A DNA stretch of 64,000 nucleotides from Spirochaetota bacterium (lineage in GTDB: Bacteria > Spirochaetota > UBA4802 > UBA5550), in the NCBI GenBank assembly GCA_050298055.1, contig JBNKTL010000022.1, positions 1-64,000 of the forward strand, in the 5' to 3' direction. The position numbers were made by a program. This document shows positions 12,001-21,000 of the stretch, piece by piece. Position 1 is the stretch's first letter, and each line of letters starts with the position of its first letter.

Positions 12001-15000
12001 GGACAAGTGCTGTTTTTTTCTCTTTCATGGGGGCAAAAGTAAAAAACGGGGGCCTTTTCGTCCCGTATTTTTTTCAAAAAATCTCTCTTTCTGTCTCAGA
12101 ACTGACCCTGATCAATTAAATTCAAACTCAGCAGATCAATGAATCTCCTGGTATACTCCAGTAAATTTCAAACAATGACCCTCATCACTTCATATTTCTT
12201 ATTATACTCGAAGAGGTGCTGCTGTGTCTTTTCAGGATATTGCTCAGAACCCTGTATGCTCGCTGAAATGTGTTCATTGCTTCCTGGAGCTCAAACTGGA
12301 GTTTCTGTGTGTTATCACTGATACTATTTATATCCCTTTTTAAAATACTTTCGTTTTTTCCCAGGGAATTTTTCTTACGCTCAAGAAACCGGGTATACCT
12401 CTTCAGTTTTGCCGCCAGAGACCGGGCGGCCCTTAAATCCGGGCCCTTTATCCGTTTATCCTTCCCGGATTCCAGTTTCCTGATCTCACGGTCAAGGTCC
12501 GTCGATGCCTTCCGGCTTGAGGCGATCAGTTTATTAATTCTGTTCAGTGTGGCTCTGCGGCGGCTGGTAAAGGATGCAGAGTATGAAAAGTCTGTTAAGA
12601 TGAGAGCGGTAAGTGCTGTTAAGACCAGGACCCTCTTACGCATGTTAAGCCTCCGTTATTTAATTATTTTTACATCAAACAGATTGACACCTGTTTTTTA
12701 TTAGTCAATCAATATTTATTGACAGCCGTTTAATCCATCCTCTCTGCGCGCCCCCTTTGGTAAAGGGGGCTTTCTGGGGATGAATTGTTCCGTCTCACAG
12801 GCTCCCCTTTAGCAAAGGCCGGCTTTTTCGCACCCTCCTGGCGCTGTGCCCACAGGGTTACCTCCTGTAAACTCGGGAGCTGCCAGAGGCTGAGGGGATT
12901 TGAATTTTCGGTACCCCGGTGAGACTTAACACAATAGCCTACGGAAATGATAACATCAAGATTATCAATACTTCGTGATATTTCTCTTTTTCCTTCAAGC
13001 TGAACTGTTGCAAAATTTGCAACAGTTGAATCTTTAGCAAGCTCTGCTTCATCATAAATATTTTTTATATGCCGCGATATTACTGATTTATCCCGCTGAA
13101 ACAATTCAGCCATTTGATTTATAGACAGCCATACAGTTTCATCCTCAAGACGAACATCGATCCTGGTATCACCATCATCGGTTTGATAAATATGAATATC
13201 TGATTTTTTTTCAGTCATAATTTTTTTCAACCACGAACCACATGAAATACACACTAAAGCAAATTCAAGGAATAATCACCTGTGCTCTTTGGATGAACAC
13301 CTCTGTGAAAACACTTATATCAATCACCAGGGGTATAATCCACCCCTTATTAATCAAAGCTGAAAGGGAGATTTGTCAACAATAAATGATCAAATAACAC
13401 ACATTGTAATTACTTCAGATTATTTATGAAACAATATATTACATTCTCAATTAATATTTATTGACAAAATCATTTGTTAATGCACTGACTCGAATCCCCG
13501 GTAATTTAAATACTTTTCCGCAGGAGCATATCATGAAGAGCGGTGAGATCAACGAAATATACTACGATGCAGGAACATGGCCCCCTGACCCGGACAGGCC
13601 CACCATTCTCTTCATACATGGAGCCACAAACTCCCGAAAGCTCTGGAGCAAACAACTCACGGCACTCTCCCAATACATGAACACACTGGCAATAGACCTT
13701 CCCGGTCACGGGAAAAGCGGGGGACCGGGGATGGATACTATCTCCGGTTATGCGGATTCCGTCATGAAATTTATAAACCGGGCGCGAATAGAAAGACCTG
13801 TTCTCTGCGGATTGAGCATGGGGGGAGCAATCGTCCTTGAGCTTCTAACCAGAAATAATATGCCGATTCAGGGAGGAATACTGATAAATACAGGAGCCCG
13901 GCTCAGGGTTAATCCCGGTTTTTTCAGCGCCATTGAAAATGACTACGGGGCTTTTCTCGGGACCTTTGAAAAATTTGCCCTCTCGGAAAGTTCGGACCCG
14001 GACTGTCTCGGGGAACTCATGGAGGATGCTTCCGCCATGGAGATAGCAACCGCCCTCAGTGATTTTCGCGCCTGTGATTCATTCGACCTCATGGACAGGC
14101 TTCAGGGGATTGAAGTTCCCGTCCTTGTTCTCACCTCAGAAGAAGACCGGATAACACCTCCCAAATACGGGATCTTCCTCGAAGAGAATATCAGGAATGC
14201 CCGCAGGGTCCATATTGATAAAGCGGCACACTTCTCCCCCCTGGAGCAGCCGGAAGCGGTAAACAGGGCTATCCTGGATTTTATCAAACAGCTGGAAGGA
14301 CAAAAAAAAGATTTTAGACACGGATAAACACGGGGTAGTATAGGTTCCTAGTTACGAGTTCCGGGTTCCGAGTTTTTATTCATATACAAAGTCTTCAACT
14401 CGGAACTCGAAACCCGTAACCCGGAACTAAAGATCTTTTAGTGCACGTCTTTAAGAAACGATTCCGAGAACTGGTCCCAGAGCGCGTCATCCATAACGGG
14501 TTCCAGTATGAGATCATCAGCCTGGACATCCTTATCCTCACTCTCAACCTCAACCTCTTTTTTGAGTTCCGAGATCATCCGGACATACTTATCGATCTCC
14601 GTCTGGTACCATGATACGGCATCCGAGCCGATCTTCAGGGACTGGAGTTCGCCGCCCAGATTAGAGGCTTCAATATAACAGACCCATCCGTGCTCATAGG
14701 GCTTTATCTTGAGGAGTTCCACGTTGTCATGGAGTTTTTCGTTAACATACTTGATTATGCCGGAAACAGGTGAAAGAAAATCAGCAACCCTCTTTCCCTG
14801 CTTTACGGAAAAAAGGACATTGCCCCGAGTGACTTCATCCCCCCTGGCGGGAAGGACCACCTCGTCTATGGGGCCCATTATCTTCTGGACAAAATCATCC
14901 AAGCCTACTTTCACAAGCCCGTTCTGTTCAATACTTCCCCAGGTATGACTGGATGATATAAAGACACCGGATGGCACGTTGAATTCATGGATTGAGTCTG

Positions 15001-18000: not shown

Positions 18001-21000
18001 TGTAAGCATGGAAAAACTCTTTTTACTGTTGACTCTTAAATTATCTTATTGAAAAAATCAGTACAAGTAATTTATTTAATTGTAATGACTCCGCTGTATA
18101 AAATAATTTAAAGCTATTTACAAAAATGCTCCCAACCTGTTTCCGCAACACAAAGCGGCGGAAACATTTCAATTATATTTTTATAGTGAATATGATTATT
18201 TTTTCACATTGCTGAGTATCTACATTTAATTTCCCGGTAATATACAATAATTTTGATAGAAAAAACAGTCAATGCTTTTAATTTTTTTTATTATTTAATT
18301 GACAATATATATATTATATAATAACGATTGAAAAAAATAAATCGAGAAGTAACAATGGAGGAATAGTGAAAGCTTATGGGGACTTCTAAAGATTAAATTT
18401 ACCATATTTCACCTGTAGATAATTTTCTTCTTAATTTAATCTTATTTACTATGTATCGTTATGCGGGCAGTGTATTTTGCTTCTTTAAAAAAGCAAATAG
18501 GCCTTAAGAATTCCCCGGCAATCTCCATCACAAAAACACATTCAAACAATTGAACTAAAACGGGCTGAGAGATAATTTAACAATCCGGAGTAATTAAAGA
18601 GGTAATTATGAAGATAATCTACGTTCTTTTTATACCTGTTCTTCTCCTCTTAGTGTTAACCGTTGGATACGGGCAGAAGGGGAGCGGAGCATTAAAGATA
18701 CCCGATAAAATTAAAACCCCCTCTCACGTAGGTGAAGTAAATTTTCCTCACAGGGCACATTTTGACGATTTCAATGTTGAATGCCAAAACTGCCATCACA
18801 GGATCAGAGCATCTTCATTAAAAATACCCCACAGGTTTTCTACCAGGGACAACTGGAAAGACTGTACCTACTGTCACAATCCTGATCGTAAGAGGCATAA
18901 TCTCTACAGCTGCAGGAACTGTCACAATAAACTTGAAAAGAACTACATGAAACAGGTCCTCAGCTATAAAGTGGTCATTCACAAATCATGTGTTGAATGC
19001 CATGAAATGGGAAAAGGGGTAGAAGCAAGTAAATCGTGTAAATTCTGCCATTCCGGGAAAAAGCAGGAATATTAATATCCAGAGTAACGACTCAGCTATG
19101 ATCATGAATAATCAGAGAATCCCTGCTATTCAATTTGAATGACATATTAAAAAAAAGGATGTTTGACAATGGATAGAAGAAAGTTTATTAAAACACTCGC
19201 ATCAGCATGCGGCATATTGTCCGGAAAAAATCTTTTTGCTCAAAACCGTGAAAAACCGTCTCCAAAGGAATTTATAGGAATACTCACCGATATAAGCAGA
19301 TGCATTGGGTGCCGTTCCTGTGAAGTGGCCTGCGGAAAGGCTAATAATATGCATGTCCCCCAAGTGGAAAAGGACGGCGCCCTCAATAAGATACGAAAAA
19401 CCAGTGAAAAACAGCTGACAGTGGTAAACAGGTTCAAGACAAGCAAGGGAGAGTTTTATGTAAAAAAACAGTGCATGCACTGCTGGCAGCCGGCATGTGC
19501 ATCGGCATGCCTGACCAATGCCATGTACAAGACAAAAGAAGGACCCATTATCTGGAGGGAGGAGATGTGCATGGGCTGCAGGTACTGTATGGTGGCATGC
19601 CCCTTCGAGATACCAAAGTACGAGTACAACTCCCGGAACCCAAAGGTCCAAAAATGTACAATGTGCTTCCGGCGGCTGGAGAAAGGACAGCTGCCCGCGT
19701 GCGTGGAGACCTGCCCCAGAGGCGCCCTTACCTTCGGCTTAAAGAGAGACCTTATGGAGATAGCGCGAACCAGGATCTATAGAAATCCGGACAGGTATGA
19801 ACATCACATCTATGGCGAGCATGAGGCGGGAGGTACCGGCTGGCTTTATATATCCCCCGTCCCATTTAATGAACTGGGATTCAAAACAGACCTGGGCTCG
19901 GAACCGTACCCGGGATATACCAGGGAATTCCTCTATGCAGTACCGGGAGTATTGCTGGTTGTCCCTCCCCTGCTCTACGGGCTCAGCCAGTTAACAAAAA
20001 GAGATGAAGATGTTATACCTGCAAGAGGGAGGGAAAACCATGACTAAGACAACAGTGGAAAGAGAAGAAATCACCGATGAACCTGATCTCATAAAAAAAA
20101 AGAGCACCTTGCGATTTGTTCTCCGGGAGATGAAACCGAAGGGGAATATCTTCACTCCGTTTAATTTTATTTCAATACCCATCATCATCACAGGACTGGT
20201 TATTCTCTTCTTCAGGTTCTATTACGGGCTTGGTTCCGTGACAAACCTGTCACAGGAGTTTCCCTGGGGCTTCTGGGTGGGTTTTGATGTTGTAACGGGG
20301 GTCGCTTTCGCAGCAGGAGCGTATATCATAACCTTTACCGTATATATCATGAGGGCCGAGAAGTATCACCCCATTGTCAAGGTCACGGTCCTGAACGGGT
20401 TTCTGGCTTATGTCTTCTACGCCGGGGCGCTGGCCCTTGACCTCGGACGTCCCTGGAAGATCATTAACCCGCTCATAGGGAACTCTTTCGGTTATAACTC
20501 GGTCCTCTTCCTTGTGGCCTGGCATTTTATGCTCTATATGATAGCGCAGTTTATCGAGTTTTCACCGGTTGTAGCGGAATGGCTGGGATATGAAAAAGCC
20601 AGACGGTTTCTCCGGAAGCTCACACTGGGGGCAGTGATATTCGGAATAACCCTTTCCCTCCTGCACCAGTCGGGGCTGGGGGCGCTCTTTCTCCTGGCGA
20701 AGTCGAAGATCCATCCCCTCTGGTATACGGAGTTCATCCCCCTCCTCTTTGTGGCGTCGAGCATACCCGCGGGCCTCTCCATGATACTCTTTGAGAGCAG
20801 TATAAGCCACAGGGTGTTCAGCCATAAGATCGACCCGGAAAGCCATCACAGGTTTGAGGATATCCGGTTCGGCCTGGCGAAGGGGGCCGCCATATCCCTT
20901 TTTGTCTATTACTTCTTCAAGGCGATCATTTTTATCCACGGCCACCACTGGTCGCTCATGGGGGACATCTGGGGTGTATGGTACTTTGTGGAAGTCATCG

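Follow-up and report, generated by a model that had tools for sequence, protein, structure and literature searches.

Two response regulators with a lipoate-free H-protein fold lie beside a cytochrome/iron-sulfur/NrfD module that they may control

Descriptions of two-component systems nearly always present them as switches of transcription. The response regulators CheY, RssB, CpdR and PorX work by contacting proteins, not by binding DNA. On the sensory side, the periplasmic domains of the Geobacter chemoreceptor sensors GSU0582 and GSU0935 are haem-binding. Among respiratory modules, Cbc4 of Geobacter sulfurreducens (CbcS, CbcT and CbcU, GSU0068-0070) consists of a small membrane-anchored multihaem cytochrome c, a four-cluster iron-sulfur protein and an NrfD-type subunit, according to the part of its published account that we use here (10.1101/2025.04.14.648717).

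The locus described here lies in a window of 64,000 nt, the whole stretch of DNA that was analysed, from a Spirochaetota bacterium. ORFs and Pfam domains agree with the first-pass annotation in that the minus strand at 14438-18009 encodes a HAMP histidine kinase and two response regulators combining a receiver with a GcvH fold, divergent from a set of redox genes. The three ORFs occupy 16519-18009 (496 aa), 15649-16512 and 14438-15613 (391 aa), and the kinase gene lies directly upstream of both regulator genes in the same operon, with gaps between genes of about 35-60 nt; it ends 7-60 nt ahead of the regulator genes. The genes for a pentahaem cytochrome c, a Tat iron-sulfur protein and NrfD are found on the opposite, plus strand and are not co-transcribed with the kinase operon here.

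The sensor histidine kinase (16519..18009, minus strand, 496 aa) is built of a first transmembrane helix, a periplasmic part, a second transmembrane helix, HAMP (residues 215-260), HisKA (275-340) and HATPase_c (387-496; all Pfam). The periplasmic part contains two c-haem motifs, CYGCH at residue 110 and CWESSCH at residue 153, and this pair of CxxCH and Cx4CH is kept in 49 of 51 kinases encoded upstream of such regulators. Periplasmic c-haem motifs between two membrane helices are also the arrangement in GSU0582 and GSU0935 (Mcp40H-20_sensor). In contrast to these chemoreceptors, the present protein has a kinase transmitter and is no MCP, its two motifs are one CxxCH and one Cx4CH, and residues 122-178 match the Mcp40H-20_sensor family of Pfam only weakly and below threshold (21.6 bits; cut-off 27).

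On the plus strand, the first redox gene (18608..19075) encodes a small cytochrome c of 155 aa (Pfam Cytochrome_C7 and Cytochrom_CIII) with five CxxCH motifs and a hydrophobic N-terminal anchor or signal. The second (19163..20047, plus strand) encodes an HmcB/HybA-like iron-sulfur subunit with a Tat signal (MDRRKFIKTLA), four-cluster-type Fer4 domains (Pfam Fer4_11) and a C-terminal membrane helix, and the third (20004..21266, plus strand) an HmcC/HybB-like, NrfD-family integral membrane quinone-interacting subunit (Pfam NrfD), which is 60-72% identical to cassette NrfD proteins from other phyla. NCBIfam scores fall below the cut-offs for both the iron-sulfur subunit (HmcB, 333 bits against 420; HybA, 222.8 against 263) and NrfD (HmcC, 394.9 against 550; HybB-type, 254 against 450). 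Judged from these sequence matches, the module is a relative, and no equivalog, of the Hmc, Hyb and Cbc4-type quinone modules. Both the iron-sulfur protein and the cytochrome are on the periplasmic side (Tat motif). A cytoplasmic domain could reach only NrfD loops or transmembrane helices, and this limits the ways in which the regulators might contact the redox module.

No DNA-binding or enzymatic output domain was found in either regulator with Pfam and NCBIfam. The soluble one, RR-A (g02153), is encoded at 15649..16458 on the minus strand from its likely ATG at 16458 (269 aa); a TTG at 16512 is an alternative upstream start that would give 287 aa. Its receiver is located at 16105-16434 (minus strand; Pfam Response_reg, E 6e-26) and its H-protein fold at 15685-16008 (minus strand; Pfam GCV_H, E 5.5e-20, 71.9 bits, cut-off 22.2). 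The AF2 model of RR-A is confident (pLDDT 92.6, pTM 0.89), and its best Foldseek matches are H-proteins (TM 0.82-0.85). We recovered the family counts given before, with 68 proteins at E<=1e-20 and both PF00072 and PF01597 in 63 of the 65 full-length matches. Aligning 42 sequences reproduced the conserved residues as well: D14, D57 and K107 of the receiver are invariant, T85 is kept in at least 90%, P216 and G219 of the H-fold are invariant, and S218 and W244 are kept in at least 90% (D14/D57/K107/P216/G219/S218/W244 correspond to D32/D75/K125/P234/G237/S236/W262 in the earlier numbering). The motif His-x-V-W-S-P-L-S-G is indeed common among the 65 members, with H at -5 from the invariant Pro in 57, W at -2 in 47, the P itself in 65, S in 64 and G in 65; in RR-A the motif reads H-R-I-L-S-P-L-S-G, and an Asn, no Lys, occupies the lipoyl position. 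HMMER alignment to solved H-proteins places the lipoyl column of the family at -9 from the Pro and not at -8, as had been proposed, because the RR-A family loop is one residue longer. Lys is found at -9 in 5/65 members, at -8 in 3/65 and anywhere from -10 to -7 in 14/65; the claim that only a minority has a Lys therefore holds.

The second regulator, RR-B (g02152; 14438..15613, minus strand, 391 aa), is membrane-anchored according to Pfam, alignment and AF2. Its N-terminal transmembrane helix (residues 1-25; 15539..15613, minus strand) carries a conserved Asp17 and Arg21; M1, V2, D17 and R21 are invariant in 25 of 25 family sequences, and the pattern MV-x14-D occurs in 117 of 120 relatives. 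AF2 models a helix over residues 2-42, with pLDDT about 90 over residues 1-20. The helix is followed by the receiver (residues 67-176; 15086..15415, minus strand; Pfam Response_reg, E 8.5e-31), in which D71, D72, D115, T143 and K165 are invariant in the alignment of 25 sequences, and by the H-protein-fold domain (residues 220-327; 14633..14956, minus strand; Pfam GCV_H, E 1.7e-21, 76.8 bits, cut-off 22.2). This domain matches H-proteins in Foldseek at TM 0.89-0.93, the E. coli H-protein (3a7a_B) at TM 0.93 and rmsd 1.4. A C-terminal tail (14441..14626, minus strand; alignment and AF2) consists of a long helix (residues 330-357), a variable acidic stretch and a terminal W-x2-F-x3-F-L helix, and is common to receiver-less membrane relatives.

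Both regulators thus contain a complete H-protein fold (TM 0.82-0.93, rmsd 1.4-2.5 Å, Foldseek against the E. coli H-protein), where the first-pass annotation had read a GcvH-like fold. They share 22-33% identity with GcvH (PF01597, TIGR00527) and the same fold over the whole domain, together with the motifs H-x-W, G-[IL]-[TD]-D, P-x-S-G and G-W. Unlike GcvH, the domains are fused to a receiver, and that of RR-B has a membrane helix and a conserved tail in addition; their lipoyl-Lys is not kept, and their scores lie under the gcvH cut-offs. RR-B and RR-A reach 66.7 and 60.7 bits with TIGR00527 (cut-off 115.85) and 73.6 and 71.2 bits with NF002270 (cut-off 117), while true GcvH proteins from five genomes that also contain the cassette score 141-165 bits.

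A Lys near the lipoyl site had been pointed out in RR-B, and it raises the question of whether g02152 could be a true carrier of lipoyl or another acyl group, whose swinging arm would sense or carry redox equivalents with the H-fold as input. The hairpin of RR-B reads V-K-Q-G-K-R, and its second Lys (G-K-R-V-A-D) aligns exactly and without gaps in HMMER with the Lys of the E. coli H-protein hairpin V-K-A-A-S-D, which we take to be the lipoylated residue. However, Lys is kept at this column in only 5 of 120 RR-B relatives, four of which are g02152 itself and its 86-90% identical kin; the residues flanking it differ from those of H-proteins, and it stands at the variable x of a hairpin motif, Q-G-x-R, whose other three residues do not vary in 10 of 10 membrane-only relatives. 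The Asn at the lipoyl column of RR-A likewise speaks against a carrier. A search of the 98.3% complete genome for lipoylation enzymes and P-protein, which did not extend to T-protein, found no LipA over cut-off, no LplA/LipB-type lipoate ligase (the sole BPL-family gene being BirA) and no P-protein (GcvP). We conclude that the H-fold of these regulators is not a lipoyl carrier and regard an acylated g02152 as extremely improbable. The case shows a fold of lipoyl carriers put to new use in signalling once its cofactor site was lost.

The two regulators had been treated as one class, rare enough to have escaped censuses. In fact, they belong to separate families, RR-B being membrane-anchored with a conserved tail, and their H-folds fall into different lineages of a tree in which RR-B groups with the membrane-anchored classes. 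RR-B relatives are encoded in at least 520 species genomes, with 57-90% identity in the best 120 matches and 50-90% across many phyla. The H-fold with the C-terminal tail but no receiver occurs in many more proteins. Since the g02152 family is far larger than that of g02153, the domain class is not rare, and rarity applies at most to the g02153 family (65 clusters) as seen through a word-indexed search. The output does appear to be undescribed: our literature search found no paper on receiver plus H-fold regulators or on the cassette, no curated family names such proteins, for which Pfam and NCBIfam give generic receiver and GCV_H only, and relatives are called 'response regulator' or 'CheY-like' at their source and only 'GcvH family' in atlas clusters.

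The proposed link to the cytochrome c/iron-sulfur/NrfD module has strong support from conserved neighbourhoods. In 80 loci from many phyla, NrfD was found in 70, a kinase in 70 and the iron-sulfur gene in 58, counts for which the 79 genome loci are all from metagenome-assembled genomes and the ORF picking was crude, antisense ORFs hiding genes in GC-rich loci. NrfD is no more than 6 kb from RR-B in 66/73 loci, and the kinase in 64/73; RR-A is followed by RR-B in tandem in 44/80. The gene order varies, either divergent or as one co-directional operon, and the gene set is kept. This neighbourhood alone specifies neither the binding partner nor the direction of the signal. The hosts include KSB1/Zhuqueibacterota, Ignavibacteriota, Bacteroidota, Gemmatimonadota and Acidobacteriota, and also Burkholderiales, Lysobacterales, Calditrichota and Geobacteraceae. 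The cassette adjoins genes typical of extracellular electron transfer, such as those for multihaem cytochromes, cytochrome b-c fusions and porin-like proteins.

The receiver-less relatives have the MV..D17 helix in common with RR-B, with D or E at position 17 in 50 of 58, and they also stand beside FeS-NrfD genes. An NrfD ORF was present in 39 of 51 metagenome loci of at least 4 kb, and where a locus had room on both sides, NrfD lay on the same strand within 2.5 kb in 16/18; the same adjacency is seen in Ignavibacteria-type loci. This tight operon link could mean that the NrfD module includes the membrane H-fold proteins as subunits with a structural, assembly or maturation role, a receiver then tuning only assembly or stability and RR-A acting mainly as a phosphate sink. 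The 57-90% identity of RR-B would be expected of a fixed subunit, and two regulators on one kinase are a common sink layout, as with the CheY-type sinks of chemotaxis. Such a role is nonetheless quite unlikely, in that the fold and tail are fused through one membrane helix to a periplasmic binding-protein-like domain in 35 of 149 sorted proteins, an architecture of signalling more than of assembly, and in that the well-studied NrfD complexes (Hyb, Hmc, Psr, Nrf) are not known to need such a subunit.

Often a sigma-54 activator and a second kinase lie nearby: the activator cluster occurs in 26/80 loci and in the majority of receiver-less cassettes. The neighbourhood thus includes transcriptional control as well, to which the H-fold proteins could provide an input. 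They would then form a relay or partner switch ending in transcription, in which the phosphorylated form binds and controls a transcription factor, such as the sigma-54 activator or an anti-sigma-type protein, which then sets expression of the redox module. The receivers of these regulators are closest to NtrC-type receivers, which fits. On the other hand, Pfam and inspection of the locus found no such activator in the present window up to 10 kb from the cassette, the conserved membrane helix of RR-B is easier to reconcile with a target in the membrane than with a soluble factor, and the genes directly next to those of the receiver-less relatives in their operons are FeS-NrfD and not the activator. 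We consider a transcriptional endpoint unlikely.

The reading that we prefer, with a probability of roughly 0.5, is that the kinase, the H-fold regulators and the cytochrome, iron-sulfur and NrfD proteins form one cassette that tunes contact with the quinone module by phosphorylation. What the analysis shows is the domain make-up, the H-fold, the family-wide loss of the Lys, the lack of lipoylation genes, the haem motifs and the conservation of the cassette; from these we infer that phosphate is transferred, what is bound, and in which direction and to what effect control is exerted. The six genes, three on the minus strand and three divergent on the plus strand, would act as a single functional cassette, in which the two-haem periplasmic kinase reads the periplasmic redox state or a ligand and phosphorylates RR-A and RR-B, both without a DNA-binding domain and with an H-fold unable to carry lipoate. 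RR-B, presumably the receiver-bearing form of the larger membrane-anchored H-fold family in FeS-NrfD operons, would be held in the membrane by its N-terminal helix with the buried Asp. Its H-fold and tail may together dock on NrfD, at the cytoplasmic or membrane face, and phosphorylation of the receiver would switch this putative contact, so that electron flow between the quinone pool and periplasmic cytochromes would be tuned without transcription. RR-A might be a soluble partner or a competitor for phosphate.

Going further, we tentatively suggest that NrfD-type modules in general are controlled from the cytoplasm by the lipoate-free H-fold and its tail, a subunit that would act as a respiratory valve. 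It might dock on NrfD through the buried-Asp membrane helix and the Q-G-x-R hairpin at the site of the old lipoyl arm and gate quinone or proton access, with three types of control: a receiver, as in the present window, a periplasmic binding-protein-like sensor, or none. With the valve under receiver control, the two-haem kinase would thus switch electron flow in seconds without gene expression. If the regulators do dock on a respiratory membrane complex, this would be a widespread, direct and fast way of tuning electron flow, and the hypothesis is open to standard biochemistry. Because the cassette stands beside extracellular electron transfer genes in poorly studied phyla, it bears on the metal and electrode respiration of uncultured bacteria.

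Compared with the described systems, the redox module has a three-part layout like that of Geobacter Cbc4 as far as the part of the account used here describes it, with HmcB, HmcC, HybA and HybB as best NCBIfam matches and with five CxxCH motifs in the cytochrome against four haems in CbcS; that part of the account (10.1101/2025.04.14.648717) mentions no kinase or H-fold regulator beside Cbc4. Like CheY, RssB, CpdR and PorX, whose receiver is joined to, or acts as, a protein-binding output, the regulators have a receiver with a putative protein-binding output and with no HTH and no enzyme domain, and PorX and RssB are among their Foldseek matches, through the receivers only. Unlike these four, they have an H-fold as output, a membrane anchor in RR-B and a respiratory module as the likely target.

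The minus-strand region 14438-18009 is filled by three ORFs, and the observation that two of them combine a receiver with a GcvH-like domain is confirmed. The first, a 496-aa histidine kinase at 16519-18009 (-), has HAMP, HisKA and HATPase_c domains (Pfam). Between its two hydrophobic segments lie two c-haem motifs, CYGCH at residue 110 and CWESSCH at residue 153, in a region that resembles a chemoreceptor sensor domain only weakly and below threshold (21.6 bits against a cut-off of 27). RR-A (g02153), a soluble response regulator made of a receiver and a GCV_H domain (Pfam), follows on the same strand; its start is most likely the ATG at 16458, giving a protein of 269 aa, in keeping with the 249-277 aa of its relatives. 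The third ORF, RR-B (g02152), at 14438-15613 (-), encodes a membrane-anchored regulator of 391 aa in four parts: an N-terminal hydrophobic helix, a receiver (aa 67-176), a GCV_H domain (aa 220-327) and a tail of ~60 residues. RR-A and RR-B are 32% identical across both domains. A 598-base gap separates the kinase from three divergent plus-strand genes, which encode a cytochrome c (155 aa, five CxxCH motifs) at the head of the group, an FeS protein with a twin-arginine signal and a C-terminal membrane helix, and an NrfD-family membrane protein. A promoter and terminator scan of 14000-21800 gave consensus matches barely above those in shuffled sequence and no usable operon boundaries. The window also contains, at 8562-10897 (-) and 23072-25249 (-), NuoF-like (Complex1_51K, NADH_4Fe-4S) and NuoE-like (2Fe-2S thioredoxin-like) genes and an ADP-forming acetyl-CoA synthetase-type gene. 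The NuoF-like and NuoE-like genes look like the diaphorase part of a hydrogenase of the electron-bifurcating type, or of a similar enzyme, and together with the synthetase-type gene they point to a fermentative or anaerobic host.

The first-pass annotation had been made without structure prediction; the AF2 models recover the H-protein fold (H-fold) in both regulators. The RR-B model has a mean pLDDT of 77, with the H-fold part near 90, and superimposes on the E. coli H-protein with a TM score of 0.89-0.93. The RR-A model is confident throughout (pLDDT 92.6, pTM 0.89), which suggests that its receiver is packed in a fixed way against the H-fold. The best structural matches of RR-A are H-proteins and isolated receivers, and none of them is a solved chain spanning both domains. 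An Atlas look-up returned only clusters named 'GcvH family' (scores 0.81-0.85). Against the curated gcvH models, RR-A and RR-B reach 61-74 bits, below the cut-offs of 116-117, whereas the true gcvH, a separate gene in each of five other genomes that carry the redox and regulator genes, scores 141-165 bits.

We located the lipoyl column, the position of the lipoyl-Lys in H-proteins, by HMMER alignment to solved H-proteins. In RR-A, an Asn lies under the Lys of the H-protein hairpin V-K-A-A-S-D and the loop is one residue longer; therefore, the column in this family is nine residues before the invariant Pro (-9) and not eight (-8), where it had earlier been placed by eye. The claim that the lysine is not kept stands with this correction, since of 65 members 5 have Lys at -9 and 3 at -8, and 14 have it at some position from -10 through -7. 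RR-B aligns with the E. coli H-protein without gaps, and the hairpin Lys of the latter, which we take to be the lipoylated one, falls exactly on the Lys of G-K-R-V-A-D in RR-B. It had seemed possible that g02152 is a lipoyl carrier. Most members of its family have S, T, D, E or N at this column; only 5 of the 120 best relatives have Lys, namely the window protein, three kin 86-90% identical to it and one other. In place of the lipoyl-Lys, the hairpin of the RR-B family carries a Q-G-x-R motif (strict form in 44 of 121, looser form in 88 of 120), whose Q, G and R are invariant in all ten receiver-less membrane relatives compared, and the Lys of the window protein is the variable x. The host genome (4.7 Mb, 98.3% complete) contains no lipoyl synthase above cut-off, a single gene of the BPL/LplA/LipB family, which is BirA, and no P-protein. 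Because the Lys is so rarely kept and these enzymes are not found, lipoylation of g02152 is very unlikely, and we rejected the lipoyl-carrier reading. The only stand-alone GcvH homologue of the genome likewise lacks the lipoyl-Lys (hairpin E-S-H-L-D-I-Y-Y-M-R-S-P-V-S-G). This 132-aa protein, encoded on contig C7 (L001, 1483-1881, -) beside a type II 3-dehydroquinase gene, scores 104.6 bits against NF002270 (cut-off 117).

The earlier counts for the RR-A family were reproduced: 68 proteins match at E<=1e-20, and 63 of the 65 full-length matches contain both PF00072 and PF01597. The invariant receiver residues and the Pro, Gly, Ser and Trp positions recur in an alignment of 42 members, and the His/Trp motif is indeed common: 57 of 65 members have His five residues ahead of the invariant Pro (-5), and 47 have Trp at -2. 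In three Burkholderiales bins (L022, L039, L044), a receiver protein of RR-A length (~263 aa) has two hydrophobic repeat segments replacing the H-fold; these ORFs were BLAST-clustered with RR-A through the receiver only.

The rarity proposed for this architecture is not upheld, as the RR-B family is large. The best 120 matches of RR-B (349-420 aa) are 57-90% identical to it over nearly the full length and all contain both domains, and a one-genome-per-species collection yielded at least 603 matching stretches, at least 520 of which encode an RR-B relative. The best 79 loci, all from metagenome bins and named here by record title, belong to KSB1/Zhuqueibacterota, Ignavibacteriota, Bacteroidota/Rhodothermales, Gemmatimonadota, Acidobacteriota, Burkholderiales and other Betaproteobacteria, Lysobacterales/Woeseiaceae, Calditrichota, Geobacteraceae, Binatia and Spirochaetia. 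The closest among the matches listed, in a Spirochaetia bin (L004, 65% identity), has the gene order of the window. The membrane helix is also conserved in sequence: all 25 sequences compared share M1, V2, D17 and R21, and 117 of 120 show the pattern MV-x14-D.

We called ORFs in these 79 loci and the window (80 in total) and clustered them by BLAST. The regulator cluster is represented in 77 loci, the NrfD and kinase clusters in 70 each, the FeS cluster in 58 and the small cytochrome in 31; the FeS count is too low, because in GC-rich loci an antisense ORF was picked up in place of the gene. Among the 73 loci with an RR-B-size gene, NrfD lies within 6 kb in 66 and the kinase in 64, which supports the proposed link of the H-fold regulators to the NrfD module. 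RR-A followed by RR-B occurs in 44 of 80 loci. This gene set, the cassette, persists while its order varies by lineage: besides the divergent order of the window, we observed RR-B, cytochrome, FeS, NrfD, kinase, RR-A, RR-B; FeS, NrfD, multihaem cytochrome, kinase, RR-A, RR-B; and kinase, RR-A, RR-B, FeS, NrfD. The cassette NrfD proteins are 60-72% identical across phyla. Of the 51 kinases encoded immediately upstream of a regulator, 49 have a CxxCH motif around residue 112 and a Cx4CH motif around residue 156; the other two are truncated ORFs. A complex prediction for NrfD with full-length RR-B, run without controls, scored 0.00 and speaks neither for nor against binding. In L005, L010, L012, L013, L047, L048, L056 and L072, the cassette often stands beside two further gene sets, one of multihaem cytochromes, a beta-barrel-like protein and a rhodanese-domain protein, the other of a multihaem cytochrome fused to or paired with cytochrome b561 plus a sigma-54 activator; to us, these are reminiscent of porin-cytochrome and CbcBA/CbcL-type electron export systems.

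When the H-fold and tail of RR-B (residues 195-391) served as query in an exhaustive HMMER search, 4109 cluster representatives matched at E<=1e-3, of which 1288 also passed E<=1e-10. Of the 150 representatives listed, we sorted 149 (P0244-P0392) and set aside the top match, P0155, which was already in the best-120 RR-B set. Fifty-eight are receiver-less proteins of ~230 aa with the same MV...D helix start (50 of the 58 have Asp or Glu at position 17) and the same tail end. Another 35 (P0277, P0284, P0313, P0363 and 31 more) are ~560 aa long, with a periplasmic domain lacking a Pfam match and one membrane helix ahead of the H-fold and tail; this class looks like a one-component transmembrane sensor with the H-fold as its cytoplasmic end. 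The 151 searched genomes of the phylum of L072 gave only C-terminal (H-fold) or N-terminal matches to it and no full-length member. One further representative, P0271 (1391 aa), joins three tandem GCV_H domains to FAD_binding_4, FAD-oxidase_C, a 4Fe-4S dicluster and two CCG domains, the latter part being a putative lactate/glycolate-oxidase plus HdrD-like unit, a further unusual use of the H-fold.

The short receiver-less class also accompanies NrfD. In Ignavibacteria-type loci, a 224-aa form directly adjoins further FeS-NrfD pairs, and in metagenomes a scan with the 230-aa class recovered 380 relatives; 51 of the loci span 4 kb or more, and 39 of these contain an NrfD ORF. NrfD lies on the same strand within 2.5 kb in 21 of the 30 loci in which the ORF picker kept the H-fold gene, and in 16 of the 18 with 3 kb of flanking sequence on each side. 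In a typical receiver-less cassette, the gene for a soluble Cys-rich H-fold protein comes first, followed by those for a membrane H-fold protein, FeS and NrfD, and a kinase and a sigma-54 activator are encoded nearby. Thus, both cassette types pair a soluble with a membrane-anchored H-fold protein. The FeS protein has a Tat motif in 8 of 23 receiver-less cassettes versus 54 of 68 regulator cassettes. In L085, L090-L093, L155 and other metagenome loci, the soluble proteins (~270-300 aa) carry an N-terminal four-Cys motif, C-x12-C-x5-C-x2-C (e.g. C-V-W-M-E-A-G-I-V-S-Y-K-I-C-D-R-N-F-E-C-E-T-C), which may be a metal site; they are always paired with the membrane H-fold protein upstream of FeS-NrfD.

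In a tree of 42 H-fold domains, RR-A forms one group (99/94) that adjoins true GcvH (91/76) when the tree is free, and RR-B forms another (90/90) nested among the membrane-anchored and periplasmic-sensor classes (92/78). Forcing the two together costs 13.4 log-likelihood units (p-AU 0.048). Separate origins of the two H-folds are no more than likely, since this p-AU is borderline and the forced group was named after a quick tree had been viewed.

Taken together, the earlier interpretation is partly supported. Judged by sequence and neighbourhood, FeS-NrfD quinone modules have a membrane-anchored H-fold protein of their own, and RR-B is its receiver-bearing form. Because the FeS protein and cytochrome are periplasmic and the receiver is necessarily cytoplasmic, the targets within reach are the cytoplasmic face of NrfD or the membrane helices. 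The haem kinase would report the periplasmic redox state, phosphorylation would switch the docking of the H-fold and tail on the quinone module, and RR-A would serve as a soluble partner or sink.

The proposal that the H-fold is a new kind of response-regulator output is also supported. The literature check, lacking earlier, found no paper on receiver-GcvH proteins or on GcvH-like proteins with NrfD; the response-regulator censuses (Galperin 2006/2010) lay outside its scope. The redox genes of the window are similar to HmcB/C and HybA/B, yet they fall below the equivalog cut-offs. They also resemble those of Geobacter Cbc4 (CbcS/T/U), whose account, in the portion available to us, makes no mention of a kinase or of H-fold-type regulators beside Cbc4 (10.1101/2025.04.14.648717).
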